Counted from the stretch's first letter, positions 11,413 to 54,473 are shown. The stretch: 64,000 nt of DNA from an uncultured Gemmatimonadota bacterium (GCA_964480515.1 CAYZOT010000005.1:18674-82673), one strand, 5' to 3'. Notes: a model not told the origin generated them from the sequence alone. Program-made: numbers and translations.

Positions 11413-11507
11413 GGTTGTATAGCTCCTAAGAGATCGAGTACAGGGCAGTTACAGGCGTCGAGAGACGCTTTATTTACATACTGATAGTGATTTGGGTCGT
11501 CCGTTCA

Positions 11508-21237: not shown

Positions 21238-21243
21238 CGACTC

Positions 21244-23388: not shown

Positions 23389-23524
23389 ATTGACTCAGTA
23401 TCCAGAACCCGAGGCGAGCCCCGCAAGACTCGAATCCTGATGGATAGGTGGTTCGCCCGAAGCCAGACCGCGGAAATATACTTCAACCGGAAGCTCGATT
23501 GTCCATGAACAAGGATAGGTTGGT

Positions 23525-24472: not shown

Positions 24473-25227
24473 TTAACCCGCAGTCCGAAGTCGATGTTCA
24501 GGTTGAAAGGGGTCAACTGAAAGGTTGGTCAGTGCAGGCTTATAGGGAGCTATTGAGTAAAGTGGGAGATGAATCATTTCCGTGTACATTCGGCACACTC
24601 GCGGCCAAGAAGAAACAGATCTTTTTGGCTTTCATCGAATCAACTAATCCACGTGTGGTAACGGATCGGTTAGTGGAGGTGCTTACCGAGTTCGCAGAGT
24701 TTATTCGACCGTTGCCTCTAGTCGAGGCCTCGATGCGTCCGCTCGCGATTCTCCTCCTGCCACCGCCGGAGTGGCTGACGATCGAAGACTATTATCATCA
24801 CAGTTGGCGTCTAGTCGCAGAGGTTATGCATCGGGATCCTGACCCTTGGCCGGACCGACTTCCCTCTGATCCTGAATTACCAGACTGGTCGTTTTGTTTT
24901 GGTGGGGTGCCGTTTTTTATCAATTTCAAGACGCCGTATCACGAACGTCGGCGAAGTCGTCGTTCGCTTCATGCGTATACTTGGTTGGTCCAGGCAAGAG
25001 AAGGTTTTGATCTTATTGCAGGAGATACAGTTCAGGGCCGTGCAGCACGGCGCGTGATTCGTAAGAAGCTTTCCTCGTACGATGAAATGCCAATCTTCCC
25101 GGCCTTGAATCATTATGGGCGTCCGGAAAACCTCGAATGGAAACAATATTTTGTGCCCGAGGGTCACGAGCCGATAACTGACAAGTGTCCGTTGAGCATG
25201 GATTCCCGGACTGCGTTGCGCGGATAA
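24469..25227 (+). CDS. Hypothetical protein, possibly YqcI/YcgG family (haem-dependent N-oxygenase-like, DcsA/GntA-related)
   Basis: 252 aa. The start overlaps the ureohydrolase stop (ATGA). Features reminiscent of the YqcI/YcgG family are FPCTFGTLAAKK near the N-terminus and WSFCFGGVPFFINFKTPYH mid-protein. Assignment is tentative and needs a profile search. Confidence 0.35.
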   Translation: MINPQSEVDVQVERGQLKGWSVQAYRELLSKVGDESFPCTFGTLAAKKKQIFLAFIESTNPRVVTDRLVEVLTEFAEFIRPLPLVEASMRPLAILLLPPPEWLTIEDYYHHSWRLVAEVMHRDPDPWPDRLPSDPELPDWSFCFGGVPFFINFKTPYHERRRSRRSLHAYTWLVQAREGFDLIAGDTVQGRAARRVIRKKLSSYDEMPIFPALNHYGRPENLEWKQYFVPEGHEPITDKCPLSMDSRTALRG

Positions 25228-30859: not shown

Positions 30860-32878
30860 ATGCGATCACATAGAGTTTGGTGGGTCAGCACTCTTCTGCT
30901 GTACCTGTCTCTGTTCACGATTGATCTGGCACTGCCGGGTAGGACAATGGGGCAGGAAACGGCCGAGCCCGACTCGGTTGAGTTGGTGAGGCTTGATTCG
31001 CTTCGCCGGATTTTTGATCCAGTGGAGGCTTTTGCACCACTGGATCTTCCTCTACCTGATGCGTTTCGTTCAGCGGAGGGGCGGCCAGGGGAAGCGTATT
31101 GGCAGCAACGAACAGACTACTCCATTAAAGCTACCCTTGAGGGAAATATGATCTCGGGTACTGAAACAATTACTTACACGAACAACAGCCCCGATTCACT
31201 GACTAGTCTATGGGTTCAGCTCGACCAAAATCTGTTTCGTAAAGACAGCTATGGTGCGCAACGCGCAGAAGAAGGAGCTCGGCACGGGGGCTTCTTTGAT
31301 AACGGAGGTTTCGATATCGGGGGTGTAACGCTGGACCGAGGTGAGAAACTCTCCATTCCTGAATACCGAATCGAAGATACGATGATGGAGGTGTTCCTCG
31401 ATGAACCCCTTGGCCCCTCCGGACAGAAGCTCGAATTGACGGTTGATTTCTCATTTGAGATTCCCGAGCGAGGGGGAGACCGAATGGGGCGTTTGGATGT
31501 CCGGCGTGGTACGGTATACCAATTAGCGCAGTGGTACCCGCGGATGTTTGCGTACGACGATGTGGCGGGGTGGAATCAATCACCATTTTTGGGTCAGGGC
31601 GAGTGGTACCTTGAGTATGGCGATTTTGATGTAGAACTTATCGTCCCGCGAGATTTTATCGTTCTGGCCACAGGTGAACTTCAAAATCCCGAAGAGGTTT
31701 TGACCTCCACCCAGTTGGACCGACTGTCTCAGGCGAGAGTCTCGGAGGAGACAATCTTTGTCATCGGACCAGATGAAGTGGGAGATGGGTCGACTCGTCC
31801 AGTTGGGGAGGCCCCGCTGACGTGGCATTTCCGAGCAGAGAATGTCCGCGATTTCGCTTGGGCGGCCTCGGATCGGTTTGTTTGGGATGCTGCGGGTTGG
31901 GAAGACGTACTCATTATGTCAGCCTATCCAGAGGAAAGCATCGGAACGCGGGGTGTCTCCGGTTGGGAACAATCGACTGAGTACCTCAGGCACTCAGTTA
32001 AGCATTACTCTGAAAAGTGGTATCGGTACCCTTATCCGGTCGCAATCAATATCGCTGGTCTCGCCCTCGGGATGGAATACCCCATGATCATATTCTGCTC
32101 CTATCAGTCACGAGGGTCCTTCCTTTTTTCTGTGACTGATCACGAGATAGGACACACGTGGTTCCCTATGATTGTTGGGTCAGACGAACGAAGCTACGCA
32201 TGGATGGACGAAGGATTCGACACTTTCATCAACTACTACTCAGGTATCGACTTTTCTGGTGGTGAACCGATCTTCGGTGGGTTCATGGCTCCTGCTCAGA
32301 TTGCTGATGATAGTCGAATCCCAGGCATGCCTGTGTTTACGCTGCCCGACAGTATTCCTGAGGAGGATATTGGAAGATTAGCCTACAATAAACCTGCTGC
32401 GGCCCTCGTTATGTTACGAGAGAAGATTCTCGGACCAGAAGTCTTTGATAGGGCGTTTAAGGATTACATCGAAAGTTGGGCGTACAAACATCCACAGCCA
32501 GCTGACTTCATAAGGACAATGGAGGCTGTTTCTGGGCAGGATCTCGATTGGTTTTTTCGCGGGTGGATTTATGATGATGCAGTTCTCGACCAAGCGATTG
32601 TATCCGTTCAACGGACCGCTGATACAACGGTTGTAACAGTTGAGAACCGAGGAGGCATCCCTATGCCACTCGAGGTGCGCCTCCTTTATCGCGATGGGGG
32701 TGAGGAACGCCATAGTGCTCCTGTAGATGCCTGGAAGGTAGATGGCACATATGTATTGCAGGTGGTGGGAGGTGCAGTGAGGCAAGTACAACTCGATCCC
32801 GACGGGGCCCTGCCTGATATAAATCGGTCAAACAACGTGTGGGGCCGTGGACTCATCGGGCGAAGTCCGCCTAAATAA
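30860..32878 (+). CDS. M1-family-like zinc metallo-aminopeptidase (gluzincin), secreted
   Basis: 672 aa with signal peptide. A GAMEN-like exopeptidase motif (GMEYP) lies upstream of HEIGH, followed by exactly 18 residues and then Glu (HEIGHTWFPMIVGSDERSYAWMDE), i.e. HExxH-x18-E. Confidence 0.65.
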   Translation: MRSHRVWWVSTLLLYLSLFTIDLALPGRTMGQETAEPDSVELVRLDSLRRIFDPVEAFAPLDLPLPDAFRSAEGRPGEAYWQQRTDYSIKATLEGNMISGTETITYTNNSPDSLTSLWVQLDQNLFRKDSYGAQRAEEGARHGGFFDNGGFDIGGVTLDRGEKLSIPEYRIEDTMMEVFLDEPLGPSGQKLELTVDFSFEIPERGGDRMGRLDVRRGTVYQLAQWYPRMFAYDDVAGWNQSPFLGQGEWYLEYGDFDVELIVPRDFIVLATGELQNPEEVLTSTQLDRLSQARVSEETIFVIGPDEVGDGSTRPVGEAPLTWHFRAENVRDFAWAASDRFVWDAAGWEDVLIMSAYPEESIGTRGVSGWEQSTEYLRHSVKHYSEKWYRYPYPVAINIAGLALGMEYPMIIFCSYQSRGSFLFSVTDHEIGHTWFPMIVGSDERSYAWMDEGFDTFINYYSGIDFSGGEPIFGGFMAPAQIADDSRIPGMPVFTLPDSIPEEDIGRLAYNKPAAALVMLREKILGPEVFDRAFKDYIESWAYKHPQPADFIRTMEAVSGQDLDWFFRGWIYDDAVLDQAIVSVQRTADTTVVTVENRGGIPMPLEVRLLYRDGGEERHSAPVDAWKVDGTYVLQVVGGAVRQVQLDPDGALPDINRSNNVWGRGLIGRSPPK

Positions 32879-32971: not shown

Positions 32972-34696
32972 ATGGATTTCGCCGACGGTTTCGCCAATAT
33001 CGTCGCTTGGCTCAACCACAACGTCGCTGAGTTCGGATTTACGATCGGCGAAGAGAAGCTCACGCTTCAGGTGGTTCTTCTACTTGGGATTGGGCTTTAC
33101 CTCACACTGAACCTGGGGTTCATTCAGATCAGACGCTTCGTCCACGGCTTTGCAGTGGCGACAGGCAGATATGATGACCCTAATGATCCTGGGGATGTGT
33201 CTCATTTTCAGGCGCTCACCACTGCTCTGAGTGCTACGGTCGGCATTGGAAACATCGCAGGTGCTGCTACTGCTATCCACTGGGGTGGGCCCGGAGCCCT
33301 CTTCTGGATGTGGATGACTGCATTTCTTGGGATGGCGACAAAATTTAGCGAAGTGACACTCGCCCAAAAGTTCAGAGACGTTGAAGAGACTTCCGCTAAG
33401 TACAGCGGTACGGTTTCGGGCGGACCCATGTATTATATTGAGCGTGGATTGGGGCCACGGTGGAAGCCGGTCGCCGCCTTCTTCGCGATCATGTTGGGCC
33501 TTACGGCATTCATGACGGGGAATGCGATTCAGGCAAATACGGTGGCGGATTCCATGTTCGCCCAGTTCAACATCAGTAAGGTTCTCACCGGACTCGTTAC
33601 CTCGGCTATTGTCGGCCTCGTGATTCTGGGAGGGATCACTCGAATTGGCCGTGTCACGAGTATCCTCGCCCCCTTTATGGCTGCGATCTACGTAACAGGG
33701 GCTCTCATCATAATCATCCTAAACTTCGGGCAAGTCCCAGGGACCTTCGCATTAATTTTCCGGGAAGCCTTTAACCCGACGGCTGGTATCGCGGGGACAG
33801 GAGCAGGTGCATTTCTGATTACGATGATGTGGGGCGTACGCCGCGGTTTATTCTCGAATGAAGCAGGGCAGGGCTCGGCGCCGATTGCACACGCCGCGGC
33901 AAAGACAGATGAGCCTGTTTCAGAGGGTGTCGTCGCTCTACTCGAGCCGTTTATTGATACAATCGTCATTGTCACCATGACGGCACTAGTTGTGATCATG
34001 ACTGGAGCTTGGGACTCGCGTGTCCCAACGCAGATCACGCTTGACGGGGGCGATGTTTCCTATGTTGCACTTGATGACTCTGGGGGCTCTGCTCCATTGG
34101 GACCCACTGGGACAGTCCGTTACACAGCTGGCCGACCGGCGAATACCACGGAACCGCACCTTGCGTGGCATGAGGTTTCAGTCAAGGAACTTTTTGAAGA
34201 CGAGGAACAAACTCAGCCGTTCACTGGTTCAGTTGATCCTGTTCGACAGGTTGCGCTAGCGGACGACGGGCGCGAGTTGTCGACCTTGTACGGGAATGCG
34301 GTGGAGAGTGGGGCACCGCTCACTCAACTCGGATTTCGGCGAGGGCTTGCCCCCTTAGGTGATTGGGGTCATTACATCGTAATCTTTTCAGTGCTTCTTT
34401 TCGCCCTGTCCACGGCCATCTCCTGGAGCTACTACGGAGACCGGTGTGCTAATTACCTATTTGGAGCGAAGGCGGTCATTCCCTATAAACTCATGTTTGT
34501 TGGGATGCATTTCATTGGCGCGGTACTACCTCTAGCTGTTGTGTGGTCTCTTGGAGACGTGTTTCTCGCAATAGTGATCGTTCCCAATTTGATCGCCCTA
34601 GTGTTCTTGTCCCGCCACCTCAAGGGGATGACGGACAGTTATTTCGAACGCACCCCGTGGGTGCGGGTGGGTGATGCACGTCGCGCTGGTCAATGA
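32972..34696 (+). CDS. Alanine/glycine:cation symporter (AGCS family) amino-acid transporter
   Basis: 574 aa and multi-TM. GIGNIAGAATAIHWGGPGALFWMWMTAFLGMATKFSE is the AGCS signature region. Confidence 0.85.
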   Translation: MDFADGFANIVAWLNHNVAEFGFTIGEEKLTLQVVLLLGIGLYLTLNLGFIQIRRFVHGFAVATGRYDDPNDPGDVSHFQALTTALSATVGIGNIAGAATAIHWGGPGALFWMWMTAFLGMATKFSEVTLAQKFRDVEETSAKYSGTVSGGPMYYIERGLGPRWKPVAAFFAIMLGLTAFMTGNAIQANTVADSMFAQFNISKVLTGLVTSAIVGLVILGGITRIGRVTSILAPFMAAIYVTGALIIIILNFGQVPGTFALIFREAFNPTAGIAGTGAGAFLITMMWGVRRGLFSNEAGQGSAPIAHAAAKTDEPVSEGVVALLEPFIDTIVIVTMTALVVIMTGAWDSRVPTQITLDGGDVSYVALDDSGGSAPLGPTGTVRYTAGRPANTTEPHLAWHEVSVKELFEDEEQTQPFTGSVDPVRQVALADDGRELSTLYGNAVESGAPLTQLGFRRGLAPLGDWGHYIVIFSVLLFALSTAISWSYYGDRCANYLFGAKAVIPYKLMFVGMHFIGAVLPLAVVWSLGDVFLAIVIVPNLIALVFLSRHLKGMTDSYFERTPWVRVGDARRAGQ

Positions 34697-34772
34697 TGTC
34701 GTAGACTAGAGGAAGGGATGGAGGGTAGCAGCCATGCCGGGTCGCTACGCTCCAGCGCCTATTATGAGAGGG

Positions 34773-35549
34773 TTAAGAACTGCTTCGGTGAACGTGGTGG
34801 ATGCTCCGTTGGTCTGTAGCAAAAACCAGCACGTCCGCTACGTTCATACGAGGTGGAGCGTTAACCACGAACGAAACTACTTCCGCAACATCTTGCCCCT
34901 TCAATGCATCGAACCCCTCATAAACAGCCTCGGCCCGAGCTTCATCTCCGTCAAAACGCACGAGGGAAAACTCTGTCTCCACTAACCCGGGGTTCACGCT
35001 TGAGACGCGAACTTTCGTTCCGAGGACATCGAGGTTGGTTCCTTCAGTAAGAGCTTGCACTGCATACTTAGTAGCGTTGTATACATTGCCTCGGGGGTAG
35101 ACCTGGCGGCCTGCGATACTCCCAATGTTGACTAGGTGTCCGTGGTTTCGCTCTACCATATCCGGCAAGAACGCCCGTGTGACAAAGAGAAGTCCCTTGA
35201 CGTTAGTGTCGATCATGCGGTTCCAGTCTTCAACTTCACCCTCTTGCATGAGAGACATTCCAGCCCCCATGCCGGCATTATTGATCACAATGTCGGGGCT
35301 CTGTCCGTTCGCCCGCAATTGATCGGATTCTTTAAAGACTAGCTCATGATTGCGGATATCGATGCTTGCAATGTCAACAGTCACGCCACTCTCGTCAGTG
35401 ATCTCGGATGCGAGGTGGGTGAGACGTTTTTTTCGGCGGGCCCACAAGATCAAATCCGCGCCATCACGCGCCAATTGTTTTGCACAGGCCTCTCCGATGC
35501 CGGCGCTTGCACCGGTAATGAGCGCGAGCTTTCCTTTGATTCTACTCAC
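34773..35549 (-). CDS. Short-chain dehydrogenase/reductase (SDR) family oxidoreductase
   Basis: 258 aa. An N-terminal Rossmann motif GKLALITGASAGIGEACAKQ (TGxxxGIG) is present, and NNAG and YxxxK (YNATKYAV) motifs are present. Confidence 0.85.
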   Translation of the reverse strand: MSRIKGKLALITGASAGIGEACAKQLARDGADLILWARRKKRLTHLASEITDESGVTVDIASIDIRNHELVFKESDQLRANGQSPDIVINNAGMGAGMSLMQEGEVEDWNRMIDTNVKGLLFVTRAFLPDMVERNHGHLVNIGSIAGRQVYPRGNVYNATKYAVQALTEGTNLDVLGTKVRVSSVNPGLVETEFSLVRFDGDEARAEAVYEGFDALKGQDVAEVVSFVVNAPPRMNVADVLVFATDQRSIHHVHRSSS

Positions 35550-35564
35550 TGAACTATTTCCTTG

Positions 35565-37712
35565 TTAGTTATTGTCTGAGGTGCTTATAGGGCTCAGTCG
35601 ATCCTTCATAAAATTGGCAGTGGCCTCGAAGGCGGCCAACCAGTTCCGGTGAAGCAGAAATCCATGTACTTCGTCAGGGAAGACTAATTGCTCAACCTCT
35701 ACGCCACGTTGCCTAAGCATTTCTAGCAGGTCCACAGATTCTGAAAACGGTACGTTTCGATCATCGTCACCATGAATGAGGAGAACTGGTGAGCGCCACC
35801 CATCGATCCACCCCATTGGGGAAGACTCGTAAGCAAGACGTGCGAATTCTTCGTGTTGCTCAGGTTGGTAGGAGGGAACAAAGTTTTGGACGCACACGTT
35901 CCAATCGTGGCACCCATGGATGTCGACGCCCGCTGCGAACAGGTCCGAGTTACGCGCGAGACCAAGGGCTGTCAGGTATCCACCGTACGACCCTCCCCAT
36001 AAAGCGATCCGGTTGGGATCCACATCACTTCGAGAACCAAGGAATAACCCTGCAGCCACAACGTCTCGGTATTCGCTAGCGCCGCGAGCTCCATAATCTA
36101 GCGCCTCACGGAACTCCATTCCGTATCCAGTCCCACTACGGTAGTTGACTGATAAGACAACGTAGCCGCGGCTCGCAAAGTATTGATTCAAGGCATATGC
36201 GTTATGGTAGTATCGGAGATAATGCCACCCCAGCAGCATCTGACGCCGTGAGCCACCATGGAAAAAAATGATGGCCGGTTTACGCTCTTCTGGATTAATC
36301 TCGGGGGGGAGGAATAATTGACCGTGGATTGGTAGTAGATCTTCAGACCCGAAGACAACCTGTTTGGGCGTAACCAGCTCTTGATGGGGAAATCGGCTGG
36401 GCATGAAGTCATGTATAAGTGGTCGCCTAGTCCCTCCTGCAGGTAGCACCTCGGCGTGTGCGGGCGTTGTAGCGTCCGAAGCAAGGAATGCTAATGTTTG
36501 CCCATCAGCAGTTACAGCTGCCCCCCATTCTATGCCGTCGCCGGAAGTCAAAGCTTCGGGCGCTTCGTCCATTGTCACTCGCCATAAATGTCGGCGATCA
36601 ATGTCATCTTCGTTCGATGAAAAGTATACCTGGCGTCCGTCTGTAGAAGGGAGAACGTGTTCGACCTCGAAATCTCCCGGCGTGAGTAGAGTGGCTCCAC
36701 TTCCCGTAATTGGAATCGAGTATAATTGAGTCCAGCCCTGTCTCTCCCATGGGAAGACGAGGTGGTCTGATGAAAGCCAGACCAACTGTGGCCCCGTTAT
36801 CGCATGAAAGGCACTCCCTTCTCCCGGGGTTGCCTTCCAAATTTCTCGTCCGGTCCCTGAACTCACGTTAGCAATGCGGATGGACCAAGGGAGTGCGGAA
36901 CGAACGGGTGAGAAGGGTAGTTGTCCACCCCGATTAGGGATCCGAAGAAACGCGATTTCGCTTCCGTCAGGTGACCATGTTGGCGAACCGTCACGATCCA
37001 AACTGGGGTCTAGATAGCGAACTGTTCGGTGTGGTAGATCAAATACGCCAACGAAAGAGTGGTCCCCACGGTTGCTTACAAATGCGAGTTTGTCGCCTGT
37101 CGGAGACCAGGTTAAAGATCCAGCGCTCCCTCTTATAGTGAACAGAGGTGTTGGATCGGCTCTCCCCGCGAGTGGGGTTGCGAAAACCTGTCCTCGACGG
37201 ATGAACGCCAGTGTTCTTCCATCAGGTTTTATTGCTGGCGAGGCGCCATCGGCAATGGCTTGGGTTCCTCCATCGAGAGAGGTGACCCACAATGTCTGTG
37301 TGGCCGGCTCTGGTTCGGATCTCGGGTTTGGGATCTCGCCGGAACGGTTAGGCCCTCCACCGCGCACAAAAACGATACGGCGTGCGTCTGGGGTGAAGTG
37401 GAGTGATAGCAGGTCTTGACCATCATCATCGGACCAATCAGTGAGCTTACGGCCGACAAAGTCTGGTCCTTCTGCAACCCAGATGTTGCGGGCACCTTGT
37501 TCATATCGAACCCAGGCGAACGCAGCGCCGTTGGGGGCGGCGACGAGATCGGTAGCAAAGGGAGCAGAAAGTATATCTTGGATCGAATAAGGTGTTTGTG
37601 CTTCTGCGCCGACCCCGAAGCCGCCTACGGCAATAGCAACTAACAATCCATTGCGAACGTCCAGTTCCACTTTCTGAAGTCGTTGGCTGTAGAGCTTGGC
37701 GTGACTCAGCAT
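35565..37712 (-). CDS. S9 family serine peptidase with TolB-like propeller, secreted
   Basis: Start moved to the internal Met (MLSHAKLYSQ...NGLLVAIAVGGFGVGAEAQ, signal-like), which removes a 62-nt overlap with the upstream GNAT gene (ORF-track start 37808). Contains the GxSxG elbow LWGGSYGGYLTALG, the catalytic region HGDDDRNVPF...DEVHGF, and WSPTGDKLAF/WSPDGSEIAF repeats. Confidence 0.8.
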   Translation of the reverse strand: MLSHAKLYSQRLQKVELDVRNGLLVAIAVGGFGVGAEAQTPYSIQDILSAPFATDLVAAPNGAAFAWVRYEQGARNIWVAEGPDFVGRKLTDWSDDDGQDLLSLHFTPDARRIVFVRGGGPNRSGEIPNPRSEPEPATQTLWVTSLDGGTQAIADGASPAIKPDGRTLAFIRRGQVFATPLAGRADPTPLFTIRGSAGSLTWSPTGDKLAFVSNRGDHSFVGVFDLPHRTVRYLDPSLDRDGSPTWSPDGSEIAFLRIPNRGGQLPFSPVRSALPWSIRIANVSSGTGREIWKATPGEGSAFHAITGPQLVWLSSDHLVFPWERQGWTQLYSIPITGSGATLLTPGDFEVEHVLPSTDGRQVYFSSNEDDIDRRHLWRVTMDEAPEALTSGDGIEWGAAVTADGQTLAFLASDATTPAHAEVLPAGGTRRPLIHDFMPSRFPHQELVTPKQVVFGSEDLLPIHGQLFLPPEINPEERKPAIIFFHGGSRRQMLLGWHYLRYYHNAYALNQYFASRGYVVLSVNYRSGTGYGMEFREALDYGARGASEYRDVVAAGLFLGSRSDVDPNRIALWGGSYGGYLTALGLARNSDLFAAGVDIHGCHDWNVCVQNFVPSYQPEQHEEFARLAYESSPMGWIDGWRSPVLLIHGDDDRNVPFSESVDLLEMLRQRGVEVEQLVFPDEVHGFLLHRNWLAAFEATANFMKDRLSPISTSDNN

Positions 37713-37746
37713 AGTGTTTAGGTACCCTTTTTGGGGTACAGATCGG

Positions 37747-38541
37747 TTATGATCGGGTAAGGAAGTAGTAGCAGGTGCTGGTCCCACGGTAGAGATTTTG
37801 TACAGCATACCCCCTCCTAAGATACTTCATGAACGCGTTTCGTACTGTCGCTCGCCATTGTACCAGATCGACATCTTCTTCTGTAGAGTCAGTGAGTTCG
37901 CCGGGGATTTCAATGAAGACCTCATCTCCCGAAGGCATTTCCTTTGATGTTGACCCCAGACCTGGTCGGGCGACAAGACAGTCTTTTTTGGGTGCTTGTT
38001 TGCTATCGAACCGTAAGGCCCCCTCAACCGCCCTGCGAGTCCGCCGACTTTCGAGGTCCCAGCGCACAATGAATCTGTCCGTTTCGCCCCCGACGTGAAG
38101 CAGGCTTCCCGTATCGGCACCGTACATGTTCGGAACGTAAGTCAGAATAGTGGCTCCGAGTCGGTTCAGGTTGAGGTGCGCATTTTGGGCAACCATTGGG
38201 TCGAACGTCCAGAACACTGTGCTAATCCCACGTGTCAGGAGTTCTTCGCGTTGGAATAATTTGAGGCGGCGACCTAATCCCTCACCGCGTGCGGATGAAT
38301 GCACTGCCAACATATGGGACCAGTGGCAGATCGTGTCTTCGAAATTTGCGAATAGTGAATAGATGAAACCTACTAGCGTGTCACCGACGAATGCTCCACC
38401 CAAGAAGCCCCCCGTTTTTTGCGATACTTGGAGAACTGAAGTGGGGGCAACTTCTGAGTAGCCTTCCCCCCAGGTTGCATTCTGGAGGTCTACGCAGGAA
38501 CGTAACTCGGCTAAATCCTTGAGTGTCCGAAGTTCGATCAT
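37747..38541 (-). CDS. GNAT-family acyltransferase (with C-terminal extension)
   Basis: 264 aa. GNAT motif A is present in HMLAVHSSARGEGLGRRLKLFQ (Q/R-x-x-G-x-G/A). The start abuts the stop of the upstream enolase-superfamily gene (1-nt gap). Confidence 0.5.
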   Translation of the reverse strand: MIELRTLKDLAELRSCVDLQNATWGEGYSEVAPTSVLQVSQKTGGFLGGAFVGDTLVGFIYSLFANFEDTICHWSHMLAVHSSARGEGLGRRLKLFQREELLTRGISTVFWTFDPMVAQNAHLNLNRLGATILTYVPNMYGADTGSLLHVGGETDRFIVRWDLESRRTRRAVEGALRFDSKQAPKKDCLVARPGLGSTSKEMPSGDEVFIEIPGELTDSTEEDVDLVQWRATVRNAFMKYLRRGYAVQNLYRGTSTCYYFLTRS

Positions 38542-38542
38542 A

Positions 38543-39712
38543 TCACGCGTTTATGGCAGCGGTCATCGAGTCGGAACGGGTGGTAAGATCTTCGATCCGG
38601 TCGCGATCCGGATCGACTCCAATGCCAACTCTCTCCAGGGGGACATTCACGAACCCATCGGTATTCATCGTCCATTCTGGTGTGACGACGTCTTGTTCCC
38701 AGTAACGTTTGCTGGGGGATAGGTCCCCGGGGATATCGAAATTGGGAAGGGAAGCAAGGGCTACGTTATACGCTCGACCGATCCCACTTTCTAACATGCC
38801 ACCGCACCATACAGGGTGCCCGGCCTGTTTGGCGATATCATGGATTCTGCGAGCGTTGTGGAAGCCGCCTACTCTCCCCGGCTTAATATTTATTATCGTG
38901 CCCGCCCCCATAGCCAGCATATCCTCGGCACTAGCTGGATCGACCACGGACTCGTCAATACATATGGGGGTTGTCAGTTGTTTTTGTAGTTCGGCATGGC
39001 GCCAAAGGTCACCAGCAGAAAGTGGTTGCTCGATCATGATTAGATCGAAGGCATCAAGTTCAGCCAGGTGATCTCTGTCGTCGAGTGTATAGGCGGCATT
39101 GGCATCGACAGATAGAGGCTGATTTGGGCCTAGTGCCTCGCGGACGGCAGCCACATAATCAATATCGGATCCAGGGCTGATCTTGAGCTTGATTTTGCGA
39201 TATCCTGCAGCGACTGCGGCTTCAGCTTTTTCGACTAGAATGTTCGGTGAGTCCTGGAGTCCTATCGAGATCCCAGTCGCAACGTGTTTACGCGTGCCTC
39301 CGAGGAATTGGCTTAATGACATTTTTGCGATTTCGGCCGCTAGGCCCCAGCACCCCATCTCGATTGCTGCCTTGGCCATGTGGTGACCCGTTACTCCCCT
39401 ATCGAGCAAATCGGTAACCAGCTGCGGCGCCTCAATTTCGGTCCCGAGAATCCGAGGTAGCAACCATTCTCGAAGAGCGAGCCATGCGGTATCAATCGTT
39501 TCTGGAGAATAGTTGGGCAGGTCTCCAGCCACGCATTCAGACCAGACATGGGCACCGGTTTCATCTTCCAACTCTAGGAGAAGGATAGCTCTGCTCTCTA
39601 TCCAACCGGATGAGATGGCGAAGCGCTCGACAAGTGGGAGTTCAATCTGGCGGAGGGTAACCCGTACTATGCGAAACTTCTGCTCATGATCATTTGTGTT
39701 CATCATTATCAA
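38543..39712 (-). CDS. Enolase-superfamily enzyme of the MR/MLE subgroup (o-succinylbenzoate synthase / N-acylamino-acid racemase-like)
   Basis: 389 aa. The N-terminal capping domain RIVRVTLRQIELPLVERFAISSGWIESRAILLLELEDETGAHVWSECVAG is present. The barrel domain has KIKLKISPG (KxK), IDANAAYT, and metal-ligand Asp/Glu contexts LIMIEQP and ICIDESV, typical of OSBS/NSAR. Confidence 0.75.
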   Translation of the reverse strand: MIMMNTNDHEQKFRIVRVTLRQIELPLVERFAISSGWIESRAILLLELEDETGAHVWSECVAGDLPNYSPETIDTAWLALREWLLPRILGTEIEAPQLVTDLLDRGVTGHHMAKAAIEMGCWGLAAEIAKMSLSQFLGGTRKHVATGISIGLQDSPNILVEKAEAAVAAGYRKIKLKISPGSDIDYVAAVREALGPNQPLSVDANAAYTLDDRDHLAELDAFDLIMIEQPLSAGDLWRHAELQKQLTTPICIDESVVDPASAEDMLAMGAGTIINIKPGRVGGFHNARRIHDIAKQAGHPVWCGGMLESGIGRAYNVALASLPNFDIPGDLSPSKRYWEQDVVTPEWTMNTDGFVNVPLERVGIGVDPDRDRIEDLTTRSDSMTAAINA

Positions 39713-39830
39713 CGAAAAAGGTTCCTGGGTTTTTCTCGATGTGAACTTCCGTTAATCGATCAAACACAACCTGCACGTCATGTCCTTGAGGCGCGACTGT
39801 CTCAAGGGATGGTCCATTATGTGAAGTCGT

Positions 39831-42617
39831 CTACAGGCCGATATACTGGCTGAATTTGACGATAAATACGTTCTCAGCAGGTGCGGAGAATAACCCATTC
39901 ACGTCGCGTCCAAAGTCAAAATTTCCGACGTCCAGAGATTCTCGGCGGTTGTGTTGCCAGACCAGGAAGAGCTGAGAACCCGGTCGGTACTCCCATCGGA
40001 AAACAGCATTTCCACGTAGGGAGTGGACATTGAAATCTCGATCACTTGTAGTGTGATCGAAGGTGCCGTCGTTATTGAAATCGAAATATCGCAGGTCATC
40101 AAGAGTGCAGGTTTGACCGTTTGCGCAACCGGTTACAACCCCGTCAAGCTCGATGGGTGTACCCTCTTCGAAGTCGATGAAATCGAATGTTTCAGAAGCT
40201 GCAAGCTGTCGATACTTGAGATAATCTCCAGATGAGAGCAAAGGCTGCACATACAGCTGAAAGCTCACGTCGGGGGTAAAGGCCACGTTGAGCCGCGTCT
40301 CCATGGAGAGAGATCTCCGTTTGATATCCCCGAACACATAGCGCGATCCATATGTCGGAGTGTACTCGAGCGCATTTGAGCGAGTCACATACTGTGCCCC
40401 GTCACGCGTTACCGAGTAGTTGGGTCCCAACTCGATTTCCCAGTTTGATAGAGGTCGAAATGAGAATCGCATTCCAGTTCGTACCTCGTGTCCGCTGTTC
40501 AGTCCTCCCTGTCTATATGAAACAGTCGGCGAGATGCTCAGCGGGTCGTTTCGATCTGTATTAAAGCTGAGACTAACATTCCAATTGTCAGGGTCGGTCA
40601 TGAGGGGCCCGCCCCGTGTTTCCGAATCAGACTGGCTCTCCGGTGAATAGGAGCCTCGCACATTCATGCCCCAGTTGTTGAGAAACGTGAATCGGGTACT
40701 AAGCCAGATCGATCCTGTCTCGTAGGCTCGGGTCCAATTTGCGCTCGAGGTCACATCATCGAGTAGTGAGTGGCGCAGATTATGGTAGGTATAGAGGTTA
40801 AGATTATAGTTTCGGAAGATCTTTCCTGGGCGAATCTGCCGATATCCAATGCTCGCACCGATGTCGAGGCGTTCTCCCGTTGTGATAAAACCAGCATCGT
40901 TAATCTCAAATCCCGGTGATTGCTGCCCGAGCCATGTCGACCAGGTCCAGTGTTGACCTTGTTTCTCAAGCTGGAGACGCCAATCACTCCCGAACATGGA
41001 TGTGGCTGTAGAGTCCACACTTAAATAGGCTGCGTCAGGGCGTTGAAAATAATGGTTGGAATTTTTCTGAAGTCGCATTAGCGCTGCGTTGGATCCTTGA
41101 ACAAGGCTGCCCGAGTAGAACCCCCATAGCCGGAAATCGCGTGCTCGAGCGCCGCCCCACTGGTGCTCAAAATCGATCCCGAAGCTGTAGGCATTAGAGG
41201 GTAGAAAGTCGAATGATCCGTCTTCCGGAAGTTCTCGTTTAAGCCCCGTTGCAATAAATCCCATTTTACTTCCGCCATCTCGGAAATCCTGTTGTAGGCG
41301 AACCACGGCAAACTCACCCTGTGGCTCTGCAACAAAGGTTCCGATTGAATCGCCTTCGGTATAGTAGGCCTGTCCTCTCTCACTGCCCGTAACGGCCGCT
41401 AAAGCTCCGACGGACAGTCCCCCGTTTGTCCGTCCGGTGAATTTGGCTGCGCCTAGAATCGAAGTCTGACCTGGTCGATCTCGAAAGTCTGCCGCCCCGG
41501 GTCCGAAACTGCTTGGCTCTCTTCCAATGCGGCGAGTGAAAAATAGAGCCTTCCCTCCACGTCCTCCATGTCCGCCCCGACCGCCAGCAAAGTCAAAGAT
41601 CCGCGCATCTTGTACGAAAAATGGACGCTTTTCCGGAAAGAAAGTTTCGAAAGCTGTGAGGTTAATAACTTCAGGATCGACTTCGACTTGGCCAAAATCG
41701 GGGCTAAAGGTCGCGTCGAGGCTGAACGCCGATCCGATCCCTACACTGAGATCGACTCCTCCTCTTGGGTTCAGCTCGCTTCCATCGAAAAGGGGATTTC
41801 CGGCTTCGGGTTGAGCTGTGTGGTACTGCGATACGAAGAATGGACGGGCTTCAATTCGTCGGGTTGCACTTGTAAGGTGAAGGCCGTCGATCGTACCGAA
41901 TTGGCTAACTTTACCACGAACAGTGCGTGATTCTAGAGAAAAATAATCTGTCTCATTTGACTCGATCCTACGCCGTTCAAAATTGATTCCCCAAGTTTGT
42001 TCGCCAGGTTTTGCTTCATAACGAATCTGAGATAGAGGAATACGGATCTCAGCGGTCCAGCCTCGGTCATTAATTTGAACCGCTGAATCCCAGATTGCGT
42101 CCCAGTTTTCATCTTCTTCCGAGTCGCTGAAAAGGTATCGGTCTCCTTCCGCTCCGGCGGCACTAACACGGAACTGGTAACCAGTGAGCCCATCTCGGTT
42201 TGGGTCCAACGAAAGAGTGAAATGGTCGAACGGAGCTCGCTCGTCACGCCGGGCGAGGCGTGCGCGGATTACGGTTGGGTTTGTTTCGTACATGAGAGCG
42301 CCGACATAAATGGCTTGATCATCAAACAAAACCCGAACTTCTGTCGGCTCGGTTGGCTCAGCCCCTTCAAAAGGCTCACCTTGAATAAAGCTGGAAATGA
42401 TGGGTGCATCCTGCCAGGCAAGGTCATCAAGTCGACCATCGATCGAAATAGAGCCTTCGAGACGGATGGCCCTAGCAACGGCGGTTCTTCCACCAGTTGC
42501 AATCGTTGATTGGGGTGTCTCCGAGATTTCGTTGGCTTGTCCCGCGAGTTCCCCTTGTAAATTAACGACTAAGGAAAAACAGGCGAGCCCCCAAATCATG
42601 GCTCTAATAAGCTTCAT
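39831..42617 (-). CDS. Large secreted/outer-membrane protein, DUF5916/CBM9-like family (putative hydrolase-like beta-barrel protein)
   Basis: 928 aa with signal peptide. The N-terminal SISIDGRLDDLAWQDAPIISSFIQGEPFEGAEP resembles the CBM9-like N-terminus of DUF5916 proteins. The rest is rich in alternating beta-strand-like segments ending in an aromatic residue (..SQYIGL). Confidence 0.45.
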   Translation of the reverse strand: MKLIRAMIWGLACFSLVVNLQGELAGQANEISETPQSTIATGGRTAVARAIRLEGSISIDGRLDDLAWQDAPIISSFIQGEPFEGAEPTEPTEVRVLFDDQAIYVGALMYETNPTVIRARLARRDERAPFDHFTLSLDPNRDGLTGYQFRVSAAGAEGDRYLFSDSEEDENWDAIWDSAVQINDRGWTAEIRIPLSQIRYEAKPGEQTWGINFERRRIESNETDYFSLESRTVRGKVSQFGTIDGLHLTSATRRIEARPFFVSQYHTAQPEAGNPLFDGSELNPRGGVDLSVGIGSAFSLDATFSPDFGQVEVDPEVINLTAFETFFPEKRPFFVQDARIFDFAGGRGGHGGRGGKALFFTRRIGREPSSFGPGAADFRDRPGQTSILGAAKFTGRTNGGLSVGALAAVTGSERGQAYYTEGDSIGTFVAEPQGEFAVVRLQQDFRDGGSKMGFIATGLKRELPEDGSFDFLPSNAYSFGIDFEHQWGGARARDFRLWGFYSGSLVQGSNAALMRLQKNSNHYFQRPDAAYLSVDSTATSMFGSDWRLQLEKQGQHWTWSTWLGQQSPGFEINDAGFITTGERLDIGASIGYRQIRPGKIFRNYNLNLYTYHNLRHSLLDDVTSSANWTRAYETGSIWLSTRFTFLNNWGMNVRGSYSPESQSDSETRGGPLMTDPDNWNVSLSFNTDRNDPLSISPTVSYRQGGLNSGHEVRTGMRFSFRPLSNWEIELGPNYSVTRDGAQYVTRSNALEYTPTYGSRYVFGDIKRRSLSMETRLNVAFTPDVSFQLYVQPLLSSGDYLKYRQLAASETFDFIDFEEGTPIELDGVVTGCANGQTCTLDDLRYFDFNNDGTFDHTTSDRDFNVHSLRGNAVFRWEYRPGSQLFLVWQHNRRESLDVGNFDFGRDVNGLFSAPAENVFIVKFSQYIGL

Positions 42618-42926
42618 CTATATAGCAATAGGGATAATCATAGAATTGTTTTGACGCCCGATCCTACGCGCTCGACATATTGAAAGGAAGGTCAGTGTCT
42701 TCATCCCCCCAGCCCCCTCCCCGAGTATGTGATCTCCCTAGGACGAAAATTCTTTTAGCCTTGGATTGTGAACCATAAGATACAGGATGAAACAGGACTT
42801 GAACAATTTTCACCTACCGTTTCCAACACGTTCCACGCCTCATAAGTTAAATCTCGGGCAATATAAGCCCACTCGTGGTGATTTGAGGCAGATTGCAGCC
42901 ACGCTAAACAACTCGCTAAAGAGCTA

Positions 42927-42963
42927 CCCCCGGGGGCGCATCTCTTAGCGACCGGGGTTTTTT
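42927..42963 (+). terminator. Intrinsic-terminator-like hairpin plus U-tract inside the metH 5' leader (candidate attenuator/riboswitch expression platform)
   Basis: The sequence CCCCCGGGGGCGCATCTCTTAGCGACCGGGG can fold as a GC-rich interrupted stem (CCCCGG/CCGGGG outer pairs, CGC/GCG inner pairs) and is followed by TTTTTT. It lies on the metH coding strand about 8 nt upstream of the metH start, within a 350-nt divergent intergenic region. Confidence 0.4.
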
Positions 42964-42970
42964 AATTGAG

Positions 42971-45900
42971 GTGTTTGTGTCAAACGCACGCACAACAAGA
43001 ATCCACCGTATTCGATCGTCCTTAGCTGAGCGTATTCTAGTGTTGGATGGGGCGACCGGAACGATGGTTCAGGATCTTCTTCTAGGTGAAGATGCATATC
43101 GTGGAGATCGATTCACTAATCATCCCACACCCCTCCTAGGAAATCATGACCTCCTGTCAATCACGCGTTCGGAGGATATGGCTGCCATTCATCGAGCCTA
43201 TCTAGAGGCGGGTGCTGATTTCATCACCACAAATACGTTCAATGCGCAGGAAATCTCTCAGTCGGACTATGGGACGGACGCCTTTGTGCGTGAGATTAAT
43301 GTTGCGGCTGCGGAAATTGCCCGAGGTCTAGCGGATGAGTTCACTCAGGCGGATGTGGCGAAGCCGCGTTTTGTGTTGGGGAGTTTGGGGCCCACAAACC
43401 AGACTGCCTCTCTCTCCCCCGACGTCGAAAATCCTGCCTTTCGTGCGGTCACCTTCGATGAATTGGTTGCAGCGTACCGTGAACAGGCCATTGGATTGCT
43501 CACGGGTGGAGCTGACGTGCTGCTCATTGAGACCGTTTTTGACACCCTAAACTGTAAAGCAGCGATCTTTGCGATCCTCCAACTTGCCGAGGAACTTGAA
43601 GAAGAGATCCCAATCGCGATATCGGGGACAATCACCGATCTTTCTGGGCGCACACTATCAGGTCAAACGGTTGAGGCATTCTGGATCTCGGTCCGGCATG
43701 CTGATCCGATTTTTGTGGGCCTGAACTGCGCACTCGGGGCCGTCGAACTTTCGCCCTACATCGCGGATCTTGCGAGAGTTGCGGAGACGAGCGTCAGCTG
43801 TCACCCCAACGCAGGCCTCCCGAATGAGTTTGGAGGCTATGACGATACACCTGAGCATATGGCTGACGTCCTTGGAGGCTTTGCGGACCGCGGCCTTTTG
43901 AACGTTGTCGGGGGGTGTTGTGGTACTGGCCCGGACCACATTAGAGCCATAGCTGATCGTGTAGCTGGTGTTTTGCCCCGTGTCCCTATCGAGGCAGAGC
44001 CTTTCCCACGATTCGCAGGACTTGAGCCTTTTGTGATCCGCCCAGAGACGTTGTTTGTGAATGTTGGTGAGCGGACGAATGTGACGGGGTCCGCACGTTT
44101 CGCACGGCTTATAGGTGAGGAACGTCGAGAGGAGGCGCTAGATGTGGCGCGGGATCAGGTGGATAGCGGCGCACAGATGCTCGATGTGAACATGGATGAA
44201 GGCCTGCTCGACTCCGCCGCAGAGATGACTGAGTTCCTAAACCTTATCGGGGTTGAACCTGACATCGCTCGTGTTCCGGTTGTCGTTGATTCATCAAAAT
44301 GGTCTGTAATCGAAGCTGGTCTTAAGTGTATCCAAGGTAGACCGATCGTGAACTCCATCTCCCTGAAGGAAGGGGAATATGAGTTTTTACAACAGGCGCG
44401 CCTGCTCCGACGTTACGGTGCGAGTGTGATCGTGATGGCCTTTGATGAAGAAGGACAGGCTGCCACAATCGAACGGAAAGTTGATATTTGTGCGCGTGCT
44501 TATCGGCTACTTACGCAGGAAGTCGGGTTCCGATCATCGGACATCGTGTTTGACCCGAACGTATTTGCAGTCGGAACCGGAATCCCTGAGCACAACGAGT
44601 ACGGAACTGCGTTCGTGGAAGCGGTACGTCGAATTAAGGAAGAGTTGCCCGGTGCGCTAACAAGCGGGGGCATCAGTAATGTTTCTTTCTCGTATCGTGG
44701 AAACGACGCTGTACGCGAAGCTATGCATTCAGCCTTCTTGTACCATGCGATCAGAGCTGGTCTCGACATGGGGATCGTTAATGCTGGTCGCTTGCCCGTT
44801 TACGATGATATCGATCCGGACCTCTTGGTCGCCGCCGAAGACGTGCTCTTTAATCGAACAAAGGATGCGACTGAGCGTTTGACCGACTTGGCGGGGACCA
44901 TCCGCGAGCGAGGTATGGAAGTTGTTGTTGATCACAGGTGGCGGGAACTCTCGGTCGAAGAACGGCTAAAGCATTCACTGGTCGAGGGGTTAGTCGAGTT
45001 CATCGAAGAGGATACTGAGGAAGCACGGCAGAAATTTGATTTTTCGCTCGAGGTTATCGAGGGGCCACTTATGGCTGGAATGAATCGCGTAGGCGATCTC
45101 TTCGGTAGCGGACGCATGTTCCTTCCCCAAGTCGTAAAGTCTGCGCGAGTAATGAAAAAGGCAGTGTCGTACCTCGTACCGTACCTGGAAGCTGAGAAAG
45201 CGATCGGTACGACGGGGGCGGCTGCATCGAAAGGAAAGGGTACCATTCTCCTTGCGACGGTAAAGGGAGATGTTCACGACATTGGCAAGAATATTGTAGG
45301 CGTTGTACTACAGTGTAATGGTTACGAGATTATTGACTTAGGTGTGATGGTGCCACCAGATAAAATTCTTGCAGAAGCCAAGGCGCACAGCGTCGATATA
45401 ATCGGGCTGAGTGGTCTCATTACCCCGTCGCTTGACCACATGGTGACAGTCGCGTCTGAGATGGATCGTGAGGGCTTCGAACTTCCACTACTAATCGGAG
45501 GCGCTACCACTTCCAGGAAGCATACCGCCGTGCGAATTGAGCAGAAGTACTCTGGGGCGACGGTTCATGTTCTCGATGCATCTCGAGCTGTGGGTGTGGT
45601 AGGAGATCTGCTCAGTGAAGAAAGATCTTCGGATTTTATCGCGAACGTCCGAGGTGAGTACGAAAAGATTCGTTCCGATTTTTCTGAACGTGTTCGTAGT
45701 CTGGTTCCATTTAAAAGTGCTTGCAAGAACCGGTTAGAGATCGACTGCTCGGCGTTTCCTCCTCAAGCCCCGCGAAAACCGGGTGTCCACGTTTTCGATC
45801 CGTATCCGTTAGACATACTTGTCGATTACATTGATTGGACACCGTTTTTTCGGGCATGGGAGATCAAGGGTCGCTACCCTGAGGTGCTCGAGGATAAGAC

Positions 45901-46687
45901 GTTGGGTAAGGCTGCGCGCACGCTTTTCGAAGACGCAACAAGCCTTCTTGATCGTATTGTCAGCGATGATGTCCTTACGGCGCGCGCCGTCGCGGGGCTA
46001 TTTCCTGCGGCCTCCCGGGGGGATGACATCGTGTTCTTCAACGATCTAGAAAGATCTGCGTCACTTGCGGTTGTCTCACATCTCCGTCAACAAATGAAGC
46101 GAAAGGGCTCCCGTCCCAATCTTTCGCTTACCGATTTCATTGTAGATGAAGGCTTGGGGATTCCAGATTGGGGTGGTGCTTTTGCCGTCACGGCGGGTAT
46201 TGGTCTCGATGAGTTTTGCGCGTCGTTTGAAGCAGAGCAGGATGATTACCAGAGTTTGCTCGCTAAGTCGCTTGCTGATCGGCTGGCTGAAGCACTTGCT
46301 GAGCATCTGCACGAGGTCGTTAGGAAGGACCTCTGGGGGTACGCACATGAAGAGGAATGCTCAAACGAAGAGCGCCTACGCGAAGCCTACGTCGGGATTC
46401 GGCCTGCGCCTGGTTATCCTGCGTGTCCTGATCATTCTCAGAAAGAGATTCTTTTTGAACTTCTCGATGTGCGTTCGAATACGGCGATTGAACTTACCGA
46501 ATCTTTCGCGATGATGCCGGCAGCTTCTGTTAGTGGTTGGTATTTTGCGCACCCGGAGGCGCACTATTTCGGAGTAGGCAAAATCGGTCGAGACCAGGTC
46601 GAAGATTACACCCGCAGGCGTGGGATCGAATCGTCGGAGGCCGAGCGTTTACTATCACCCAACCTCAGCTACGATCCGAAAGAGTGA
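42971..46687 (+). CDS. metH: Cobalamin-dependent methionine synthase
   Basis: 1238 aa with all four modules. The Hcy-binding module has [13 protein letters not shown] and the Zn-site [11 protein letters not shown] pterin-binding module follows. The B12-binding module has [14 protein letters not shown] and [10 protein letters not shown]. The AdoMet reactivation domain is present ([14 protein letters not shown]). The precise start (GTG 42971 versus nearby GTG/ATG) is uncertain. Confidence 0.95.
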
Positions 46688-50223: not shown

Positions 50224-50333
50224 GCCCGGATATCTGAGTGGCAGCAACTTACTAGGGAAGCGGAATGGCGCTATTGTGGATGGACTGCACAGATGAGGTG
50301 TCCGCACAAAATGAATATCATTCTGGAGGTATC

Positions 50334-54328: not shown

Positions 54329-54473
54329 GCACACACTGCCGGAGGAGGATGATTCCCTCAACGTGTGGTGTTAGTAAAACTTCCTGATAGTCTGTGAAGC
54401 ATGACTTAGCTTTACGCTAGGCGGTTCTATTGTGAAGGGTCTCGGTCGCCAAACATTTTTTGAGGGAGGTCTG

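Follow-up and report, generated by a model that had tools for sequence, protein, structure and literature searches.

The window analysed here, a 64-kb (64,000-nucleotide) stretch of DNA from an uncultured Gemmatimonadota bacterium, contains a racemase and acyltransferase gene pair that, judged by sequence, is the known two-enzyme core for converting D- to L-amino acids, followed by genes for an exported S9 peptidase and an SDR. The best overall explanation, which we consider probable though well short of certain, is that the pair functions in the cytoplasm with a deacylase encoded elsewhere, the S9 peptidase acts upstream as an exported supplier, and the SDR is a clade-specific addition.

All four open reading frames are found on the minus strand, co-directional and tightly packed. 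The enolase-superfamily, NSAR/OSBS-subfamily gene (ENO; 38543-39712) encodes 389 aa counted from a TTG, but may start at one of the ATGs two to three codons inside this frame. It is separated by 1 nt from the gene for a GNAT-fold N-acyltransferase with an extra C-terminal subdomain (GNAT; 37747-38541, 264 aa). The open reading frame of the PD40-propeller S9 serine peptidase (S9) extends from 35565 to 37808, and its first ATG overlaps GNAT by 62 nt; the start is likely to be M33 at 37712, giving a product of 715 aa (35565-37712) and a gap of 34 nt. Beginning 15 nt further on, a gene for a YdfG/YMR226C-type classical NADP-dependent SDR (34773-35549, 258 aa) closes the unit within the window. These gaps agree with an earlier note on this DNA, which described four co-directional genes with junctions of 1-35 nt; the span it gave to the four-gene operon, 35565-39712, holds ENO, GNAT and S9, with the SDR lying just outside. 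Its family assignments also hold, the Pfam matches being MR_MLE_N and MR_MLE_C for ENO, Acetyltransf_1 for GNAT, PD40 and Peptidase_S9 for S9, and adh_short for the SDR. Conservation of the gene order, proposed there as a check, was found in 13 other genomes of a Palauibacterales-like clade, in which GNAT identity is 47-65%; 4 nt stop/start overlaps joining GNAT, S9, SDR and a VOC-fold gene are frequent in these relatives. Hence the four-gene arrangement is more than chance, and S9 is probably co-transcribed with the ENO-GNAT pair.

By sequence, ENO is a clear member of the NSAR/OSBS subfamily, as had been proposed. It scores 315.7 bits against TIGR01928, the model of this subfamily (cutoff 200.65), whereas it falls far below the cutoffs of the sister families, with 116.9 against 334.95 for mucon_cyclo, and 69.7 against 500 and 63 against 343 for the L-Ala-D/L-Glu epimerase models; it was therefore excluded from the dipeptide epimerases and the muconate cycloisomerases. 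The top PDB matches are the Amycolatopsis sp. Ts-1-60 NSAR (1sja, E = 2e-87) and the N-acylamino-acid racemases of Deinococcus (1r0m) and Thermus (2zc8), the E-values of the three ranging from 2e-87 to 3e-81, and the lysine pair, metal ligands and K-P-G-R motif of these enzymes are identical in ENO. Residues K173/K175, D203, E228, D253 and K277 align with K161/K163, D189, E214, D239 and K263 of the Amycolatopsis enzyme (AmyNSAR), whilst R280, within the sequence NIKPGRVGG, is equivalent to the second-shell arginine R266. The latter has a described role in NSAR activity, and is kept in the NSAR/OSBS subfamily but missing from the non-promiscuous OSBS subfamilies (PMC12006748); a motif of the NIKPGRVGG type is present in 69 of the 76 ENO homologues from the examined loci. 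As F23 in the 20s loop of AmyNSAR is replaced by Ser35, the side-chain preference of ENO may differ.

The Pfam Acetyltransf_1 match to GNAT is weak, at 29 bits; an AF2 model (pLDDT 87.6) and a Foldseek search confirm the fold, the top PDB matches being RimI, YncA/PA4866 and phosphinothricin acetyltransferase, with TM scores of 0.7-0.85 over about 165 residues. The acyl-CoA motif is R85-x-x-G88-x-G90; the family alignment shows no variation at G86 and G90. Along its full length (residues 2-264), GNAT is 31% identical (E = 6e-40) to the GNAT of the menC-GNAT-M20 operon, in which M20 is an aminoacylase gene, on a plasmid of Bacillus sp. F19, and a Priestia homologue likewise has 31% identity. These matches place it in the same family as the NSAR-linked transferase of Bacillaceae, the comparison with the Geobacillus kaustophilus enzyme being made only via the Bacillaceae plasmid homologues. 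GNAT, recognised by its fold and R-x-x-G-x-G motif, is presumed to be the racemase's partner, a D-amino-acid N-succinyl(acyl)transferase with succinyl-CoA as the putative donor.

The direct joining of an enolase-superfamily gene to a GNAT, to which the earlier note had drawn attention, is widespread. ENO lies within 3 kb of GNAT, on the same strand, in 75 of the 86 loci carrying this GNAT family; these span Gemmatimonadota, Acidobacteriota, Bacteroidota, Calditrichota and Ignavibacteriota, and the pair is also found on Bacillus sp. F19, Priestia and Deinococcus replicons. Recurrent neighbours include an M55 D-aminopeptidase, an S13 DD-carboxypeptidase, PF00144 and class-A beta-lactamase-fold hydrolases, Amidohydro_3, an APC permease, SusC and GntR; they share a D-amino-acid theme, which counts for the D-to-L reading. 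In the published pathway, a GNAT succinyltransferase and an NSAR act with an M20 L-desuccinylase (2006 work, summarised in bioRxiv 10.1101/2022.03.03.481873 and PMC12006748). There, as here, the NSAR/OSBS racemase directly adjoins the GNAT, and the GNAT-ENO-M20 arrangement is common among relatives. The window differs in having ENO before GNAT, in the continuation of the operon with S9 and the SDR, and in lacking an M20 gene: neither tblastn with three M20 seeds nor Pfam searches of all large ORFs detected one in the cluster or the 64 kb, upholding the claim that the cluster has no M20 desuccinylase. An M20 gene is near the pair in 26 of the 75 paired loci and not in the other 49, and 32 have no hydrolase nearby at all; hence there is no obligatory hydrolase slot. 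With no deacylase detected in the 64 kb, the pathway visible here is incomplete, and the desuccinylase is most likely encoded elsewhere.

S9 is predicted to be exported, since 17 orthologues retain a signal peptide consisting of a basic-hydrophobic-AxA|Q leader, followed by the conserved mature N-terminus PYSxEDILSAPFATDL. Pfam matches are to Peptidase_S9 (9.7e-41), PD40 and DPPIV_N, and the triad S575/D651/H683 (numbered from M33; GGS575YGG) aligns with that of the Bacillus S9. S9 thus has the PD40/DPPIV-type propeller and alpha/beta-hydrolase domain with a Ser-Asp-His triad of bacterial DPP4 and acylaminoacyl-peptidase enzymes. The best PDB matches are to bacterial DPP4 (5yp1 and 2ecf), with the acylaminoacyl peptidases 5l8s and 4hxe also scoring; these mixed matches span only the C-terminal half, at E = 3e-36 at best, so the specificity of S9 is not assignable from them. 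No NCBIfam equivalog cutoff is reached (Dpp5, 85 against 900). S9 forms its own orthogroup, with around 60% identity across Gemmatimonadota and Acidobacteriota.

The SDR matches adh_short at 1.4e-49, and its closest solved structures are E. coli YdfG (PDB 3asu, E = 3.8e-56) and yeast YMR226C (5.9e-52), NADP-dependent dehydrogenases of 3-hydroxy acids (serine, L-allo-threonine) with which it has the classical SDR motifs in common. Its score against the NCBIfam YdfG model is 216.5 bits, below the equivalog cutoff of 411; relatives are named 'serine 3-dehydrogenase' or '3-hydroxy acid dehydrogenase' in their source records. In most clade relatives, the VOC-fold gene is added to the operon. Upstream of ENO by 118 nt lies a gene for a secreted CBM9-like/DUF5916 protein (39831-42617, minus strand; Pfam DUF5916, 1e-61), which is present upstream of ENO in loci L001-L018, its synteny with the operon being confined to the clade. 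Convergent to the SDR, and 77 nt from its stop codon, is a gene on the plus strand for an AgcS-type Na+:alanine/glycine symporter (32972-34696; TIGR00835, 480.7 bits against a cutoff of 272.65), found downstream in most clade loci with 76-83% identity; it is possible that this transporter imports substrates of the pathway.

The linkage of S9 and the SDR to the pair is limited to the clade, and that of S9 may represent genomic inertia. A less likely reading, albeit the most credible of the alternatives, is that both are functionally unrelated passengers, with ENO-GNAT the sole functional unit and the remainder an inherited neighbourhood in a peptidase-rich genome. The window contains five PD40-S9 genes, about one gene in nine, and synteny in the clade extends over the whole MetH-DUF5916-...-AgcS region, with the unrelated MetH/MTHFR flank as well conserved in position as S9 and the SDR. 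S9 is missing from two loci (L004 and L023) in which the remainder of the operon is intact, and the SDR from another (L025); L004 is nested inside the clade in a neighbour-joining tree of ENO and GNAT, and its loss of S9 is clean, with GNAT and SDR overlapping by 4 nt. Orthologues of S9 and the SDR with 58-62% identity are found in unrelated contexts in other lineages, all four of the close S9 orthologues sampled outside the clade being unlinked to ENO-GNAT. However, the 4 nt overlaps running from GNAT to the VOC-fold gene point to a single transcript, and PD40-S9 genes have been recruited beside GNAT or ENO-GNAT in three or more other settings, independently of one another. Five loci (L055, L060, L067, L068 and L074) have a non-orthologous exported S9 directly after GNAT; in the Gemmatimonadales loci L073 and L097 (the latter from Gemmatirosa kalamazoonensis), S9 relatives of 42-46% identity belong to a divergent SusC-S9-beta-lactamase-fold unit adjoining GNAT-ENO, with an M20 gene after ENO in L073 and none found in the 20-kb locus of L097; and the Bacillus sp. 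F19 plasmid has the order menC-GNAT-M20-S9.

It is improbable that ENO is an o-succinylbenzoate synthase of menaquinone synthesis, whether exclusively or bifunctionally. The NCBI model gives the family this name, many NSAR/OSBS enzymes catalyse both reactions (PMC12006748), and the classical Men pathway operates in some orders of Gemmatimonadota (PMC9426454); against this, men genes were found neither in the window's annotated ORFs nor as recurrent neighbours in the 86 loci, and ENO is invariably partnered by GNAT, which also holds for loci assigned to the D-to-L pathway. A preference for the futalosine route has been reported for Gemmatimonadales; for Palauibacterales, no Men/Mqn assignment was found in the literature.

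Least plausible of all is the replacement of M20 by S9, with the SDR, as the deacylase of a pathway racemising N-acyl amino acids or N-acyl peptides, possibly in the periplasm. N-acylated peptides are indeed substrates of S9C enzymes, and the PDB matches of S9 include acylaminoacyl peptidases; in addition to the lack of M20 in the cluster and window, the sister locus (L087) in the neighbour-joining tree retains M20 where the clade has S9 and/or SDR instead. Yet the bond cut by S9 enzymes is the peptide bond on the C-terminal side of the acyl-amino acid rather than the N-acyl amide. Nor does the proposed periplasmic location fit, as signal peptides are lacking in ENO, GNAT and SDR, and GNAT, requiring acyl-CoA, must be cytoplasmic, while S9 is exported. 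The clean loss of S9 within the clade, the loci from which S9 or the SDR is missing, the many pairs with no adjacent hydrolase, the coexistence of M20 and S9 in Bacillus sp. F19 and L073, and the S9 orthologues working in other contexts all run counter to the idea that S9 and the SDR fill a hydrolase slot; they look like add-ons to a racemase/acyltransferase core, rather than a new type of deacylase.

In the favoured reading of a cytoplasmic pair for irreversible D-to-L conversion, GNAT would N-acylate a free D-amino acid, most likely from succinyl-CoA, and ENO would racemise the N-acyl amino acid by two-base (Lys/Lys) proton transfer through a metal-stabilised enolate. An L-specific deacylase, in this lineage presumably encoded outside both operon and window, would then free the L-amino acid. 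The PD40-propeller exopeptidase S9 would have joined the pair's transcript in the Palauibacterales-like clade, with the YdfG-type SDR and, in most relatives, the VOC-fold protein as clade-specific cytoplasmic additions. Most plausibly, S9 would work at an earlier step, liberating amino acids or short peptides in the periplasm for subsequent import, and the peptides could include D-residue-containing ones of cell-wall or necromass origin.

The locus lies on the minus strand of the window and consists of four genes: an enolase-superfamily gene (ENO, 38543-39712, 389 aa), a GNAT gene (37747-38541, 264 aa), an S9 peptidase gene (S9, ORF 35565-37808) and an SDR gene (34773-35549, 258 aa). The first ATG of the S9 ORF falls within the GNAT gene, giving a 62 nt overlap; starting at M33 (position 37712) instead yields a protein of 715 aa, and junctions of 1, 34 and 15 nt for ENO/GNAT, GNAT/S9 and S9/SDR respectively. 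Hence the four same-strand ORFs with gaps of 1-35 nt described in the earlier note are real, although the span it assigned to all of them, 35565-39712, leaves out the SDR. The apparent conservation of the upstream S9 extension (37713-37808) in orthologues is an artefact of reading the conserved GNAT C terminus out of frame. In the called gene sets of relatives, 4 nt overlaps are frequent at the junctions between GNAT, S9, SDR and the VOC-fold gene that can follow it. A scan of 34400-43100 for promoter and terminator consensus sequences returned counts at or below those expected from shuffled sequence. A secreted CBM9/DUF5916 protein is encoded 118 nt upstream of ENO (39831-42617, minus strand), and divergent from it are metH, encoding the B12-dependent methionine synthase, and a fused S-methyltransferase/MTHFR gene (together 42971-48544, plus strand), the synteny of which across the clade of Palauibacterales-like relatives sharing the four-gene order equals that of the operon. 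On the other side, an AgcS Na+:alanine symporter gene (32972-34696, plus strand) converges on the SDR, 77 nt away.

ENO is an N-succinylamino-acid racemase (NSAR)/o-succinylbenzoate synthase (OSBS)-type protein. It scores 315.7 bits against the NCBI equivalog TIGR01928, passing the cutoff of 200.65, and falls far below the cutoffs of the muconate cycloisomerase and L-Ala-D/L-Glu epimerase models. Its 11 best solved relatives are all N-acylamino-acid or N-succinylamino-acid racemases, including those of Amycolatopsis (PDB 1sja, E = 2e-87), Deinococcus (1r0m) and Thermus (2zc8), with dipeptide epimerases matching only from E = 6e-34 onward. Residues K173/K175, D203, E228, D253 and K277 align with the catalytic set of the Amycolatopsis enzyme, and a K-P-G-R motif provides R280 as the equivalent of R266. 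The NSAR/OSBS grouping thus withstood the check for an epimerase or cycloisomerase affinity, and the naming of such genes as 'o-succinylbenzoate synthase' by annotation pipelines is corrected accordingly. ENO may also be bifunctional, acting as an OSBS besides an NSAR, though this seems unlikely. Neither the window nor the recurrent neighbours at the mapped loci yielded any men genes; PMC9426454 reports a preference for the futalosine route in Gemmatimonadales and for the classical route in the order SG8-23, and the Palauibacterales paper contains nothing on menaquinone, peptidases or racemases.

The GNAT has a weak Pfam match (29 bits), and sequence and profile searches of the PDB returned only marginal matches (E = 0.005-0.01); it is therefore without a close solved relative. 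A confident AF2 model (pLDDT 87.6, pTM 0.86), for which 22 homologues were used, was compared with the PDB using Foldseek: the first ~165 residues superpose on amino-acid and N-terminal acetyltransferases, among them RimI, YncA/PA4866 and phosphinothricin acetyltransferase, with target TM scores of 0.7-0.85, and the ~100 residues beyond are modelled as an extra subdomain. The acyl-CoA motif is R85-x-x-G88-x-G90, and HWSHMLAV and DPxxAxNAHLNxxxLG are invariant in the family, which has more than 7,500 homologues, the nearest named ones being from Gemmatimonadota and Candidatus Palauibacter.

The surroundings of this gene were mapped at 86 non-redundant GNAT-encoding loci, from 80 species-level genomes and six contigs, by placing 25 seed proteins with tblastn; naive ORF calling with single-linkage clustering, applied to 88 loci, was dropped because GNAT, ENO and M20 became merged through fused ORFs and antisense ORF clusters arose. 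A same-strand ENO lies within 3 kb of the GNAT at 75 of the 86, and at 67 the two are no more than 170 nt apart. GNAT precedes ENO in Gemmatimonadales, Thermoanaerobaculia and other Acidobacteriota, Bacteroidota, Caldithrix and Ignavibacteriaceae, with a gene of the M20 family, to which the L-desuccinylase of the known pathway belongs, within 2.5 kb at 24 loci and no nearby hydrolase at 32. The order found in the window, ENO then GNAT, occurs at 19 loci, all from Gemmatimonadota: 13 continue with the orthologous S9 and then the SDR, two have the SDR only (L004 and L023), two the S9 only (L025, and L013, where the contig ends) and two an M20 gene (L048 and L087). Three loci (L056, L062 and L066) hold a further GNAT copy, followed by ENO in L056 and L066. 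Recurrent neighbours in other lineages are M55 D-aminopeptidases, S13 DD-carboxypeptidases, PF00144 and class-A beta-lactamase-fold hydrolases, Amidohydro_3 enzymes, APC permeases, SusC and GntR, so that D-amino acids and peptides with D-residues form a consistent theme.

The same pair is present in the replicons of cultured bacteria, in agreement with the Geobacillus kaustophilus pathway of GNAT succinyltransferase, NSAR and M20 L-desuccinylase. A plasmid of Bacillus sp. F19 (CP085711.1, 347640-360431) carries an operon-like run of five opp/dpp ABC genes, menC, GNAT, an M20 aminoacylase gene, S9 and two beta-lactamase-like genes, both encoding hydrolases of that fold; the run has the appearance of a complete cassette for peptide-to-L-amino-acid salvage. 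Its menC product is 43% identical to ENO and its GNAT 31% identical over the full length to that of the window; its S9 was rejected as an orthologue of the S9 described here, being 24% identical to it and leaderless. Priestia megaterium has an amidohydrolase followed by GNAT and menC, and in D. radiodurans MP1 a substrate-binding-protein remnant separates menC from GNAT; the D. radiodurans SDR beside menC gave short, weak matches to that of the window (best E = 5e-05) and was likewise rejected. Hence the earlier note's association of ENO with GNAT is well supported. What is new about the locus is its lineage-specific arrangement of a two-enzyme module that is already known; the pathway chemistry is not new.

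The link between S9 and the pair is probably not entirely meaningless, as a PD40-S9 gene adjoins this GNAT or ENO-GNAT in four separate settings. Besides the operons of the window's clade and the Bacillus plasmid, these are a divergent SusC unit in Gemmatimonadales and a second Gemmatimonadota clade. In the former, GNAT-ENO-M20 lies beside a SusC/beta-lactamase-fold/S9 unit in L073, and GNAT-ENO beside the same divergent unit (SusC, S9 and a PF00144 hydrolase) on plasmid 2 of Gemmatirosa kalamazoonensis KBS708 (NZ_CP007130.1, 651491-672246), with S9 proteins 46% and 42% identical to that of the window respectively. In the latter (L055, L060, L067, L068 and L074), a non-orthologous, leader-bearing S9, 27-28% identical to the window's other S9, starts ~15-70 nt from the GNAT stop, as measured from the ORF start to the tblastn-defined GNAT end (locus positions ~10000-13000, or 4447-7330 for L067). 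These loci have no ENO, and hold GntR, a PF00144 hydrolase, two unannotated families and three amidohydrolases. The most economical reading, and the one we consider probable as a whole, is that the peptidase has a supply role: amino acids or short peptides set free by periplasmic peptidases would be imported by a transporter, for which the convergent AgcS is a candidate by position only, and GNAT, NSAR and a deacylase encoded elsewhere would turn D- into L-forms.

That S9 and SDR are instead pure passengers seems rather unlikely given these repeated juxtapositions, yet both orthogroups occur independently of ENO-GNAT. S9 proteins 58-62% identical to that of the window are found without the pair in bacterium HR33, Vicinamibacteria and others; in three of four sampled unlinked loci (L092, L093 and L094, 6001-12600; 58-59% identity) a penicillin amidase directly follows S9, and in two of these three (L092 and L093) S9A prolyl oligopeptidase and M16 peptidases also lie downstream. 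SDR orthologues of 59-60% identity stand alone in Gemmatimonadales beside NMO/DUF4442, Rce1-like, Omp85 and M1 genes. The window itself is unusually dense in proteolytic genes, with five PD40-S9 genes (3048-5024, 13760-15775 and 50265-52415 on the plus strand; 28535-30658 and 35565-37808 on the minus strand), alongside a PD40-only protein, an M1 peptidase and a penicillin-amidase Ntn gene (5153-7705, 30860-32878 and 54432-56972, all plus strand); hence an S9 neighbour comes cheaply here. The S9 at 50265-52415 is two genes upstream of the penicillin amidase (54432-56972). Elsewhere in the window, genes for a class IV aminotransferase (a fold shared by D-amino-acid and branched-chain aminotransferases), a DMFA2_C-like protein with a Big_7 domain, an arginase-family enzyme and a YqcI/YcgG protein cluster at 20326-25227; two PQQ-dependent dehydrogenase-like propeller proteins are encoded on the minus strand (359-2844 and 11508-13661), of which one is fused to a cytochrome c domain and the second adjoins a dihaem cytochrome c gene.

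A more elaborate proposal, which we regard as improbable, is that this clade may have rebuilt the D-to-L module as a single two-compartment operon, in which an exported PD40-S9, adapted to peptides that contain D-residues or are N-blocked, would supply the cytoplasmic GNAT and NSAR, and the SDR, with the VOC-fold protein, would remove epimerisation products that are not proteinogenic, such as L-allo-threonine from D-threonine. Epimerisation of D-threonine derivatives at the alpha carbon gives the L-allo form, and this is oxidised by enzymes of the YdfG type. The SDR is YdfG/YMR226C-like (PDB 3asu, E = 4e-56; source names include 'serine 3-dehydrogenase') and scores under the YdfG equivalog cutoff; its handling of L-allo-threonine-type products is speculative, and the stand-alone orthologues argue against a dedicated role. 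The VOC-fold gene follows the SDR in eight of the 13 S9 and SDR loci and is absent from the window (34697-34772, between SDR and AgcS); it encodes a two-domain VOC/glyoxalase-fold protein and is translationally coupled to the SDR (L001, 13723-14514; L003, 13717-14505). Were this proposal true, the four recruitments of PD40-S9 beside GNAT would mark an unrecognised S9 class tied to D-amino-acid salvage.

The earlier note's own idea, that S9 and SDR replace the M20 deacylase, was not borne out and is very unlikely: while the 64 kb window contains no M20 or other obvious desuccinylase, all 17 S9 orthologues have a basic, hydrophobic, A-x-A|Q leader before a conserved mature N terminus, (P/A)YS(I/V)EDILSAPFATDL, that predicts export, no leader is present on ENO, GNAT or SDR, and a GNAT that depends on a CoA thioester acts in the cytoplasm, hence S9 could not deacylate a cytoplasmic N-succinyl-L-amino acid; S9 is dispensable, as L004, nested within the S9-bearing clade in a neighbour-joining tree of ENO and GNAT (not bootstrapped), lacks it on a 3.07 Mb contig and has a 4 nt GNAT/SDR overlap, L023 also keeps the SDR alone and L025 has S9 without SDR; the 32 pairs with no adjoining hydrolase imply no obligatory slot; M20 and S9 coexist in the Bacillus operon and in L073; and the independent occurrence of both orthogroups and the peptidase-rich background also weigh against it.

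The finding does not reveal a new enzymatic mechanism; it extends the NSAR-GNAT pair for D-amino-acid salvage to marine and sponge-associated Gemmatimonadota, with the Gemmatirosa kalamazoonensis plasmid locus offering a possible experimental system in a cultured relative. The pair occurs widely across Gemmatimonadota, Acidobacteriota and Bacteroidota, inside loci rich in D-stereospecific peptidases, and is relevant to the recycling of cell-wall-derived D-amino acids by these peptide-degrading bacteria.
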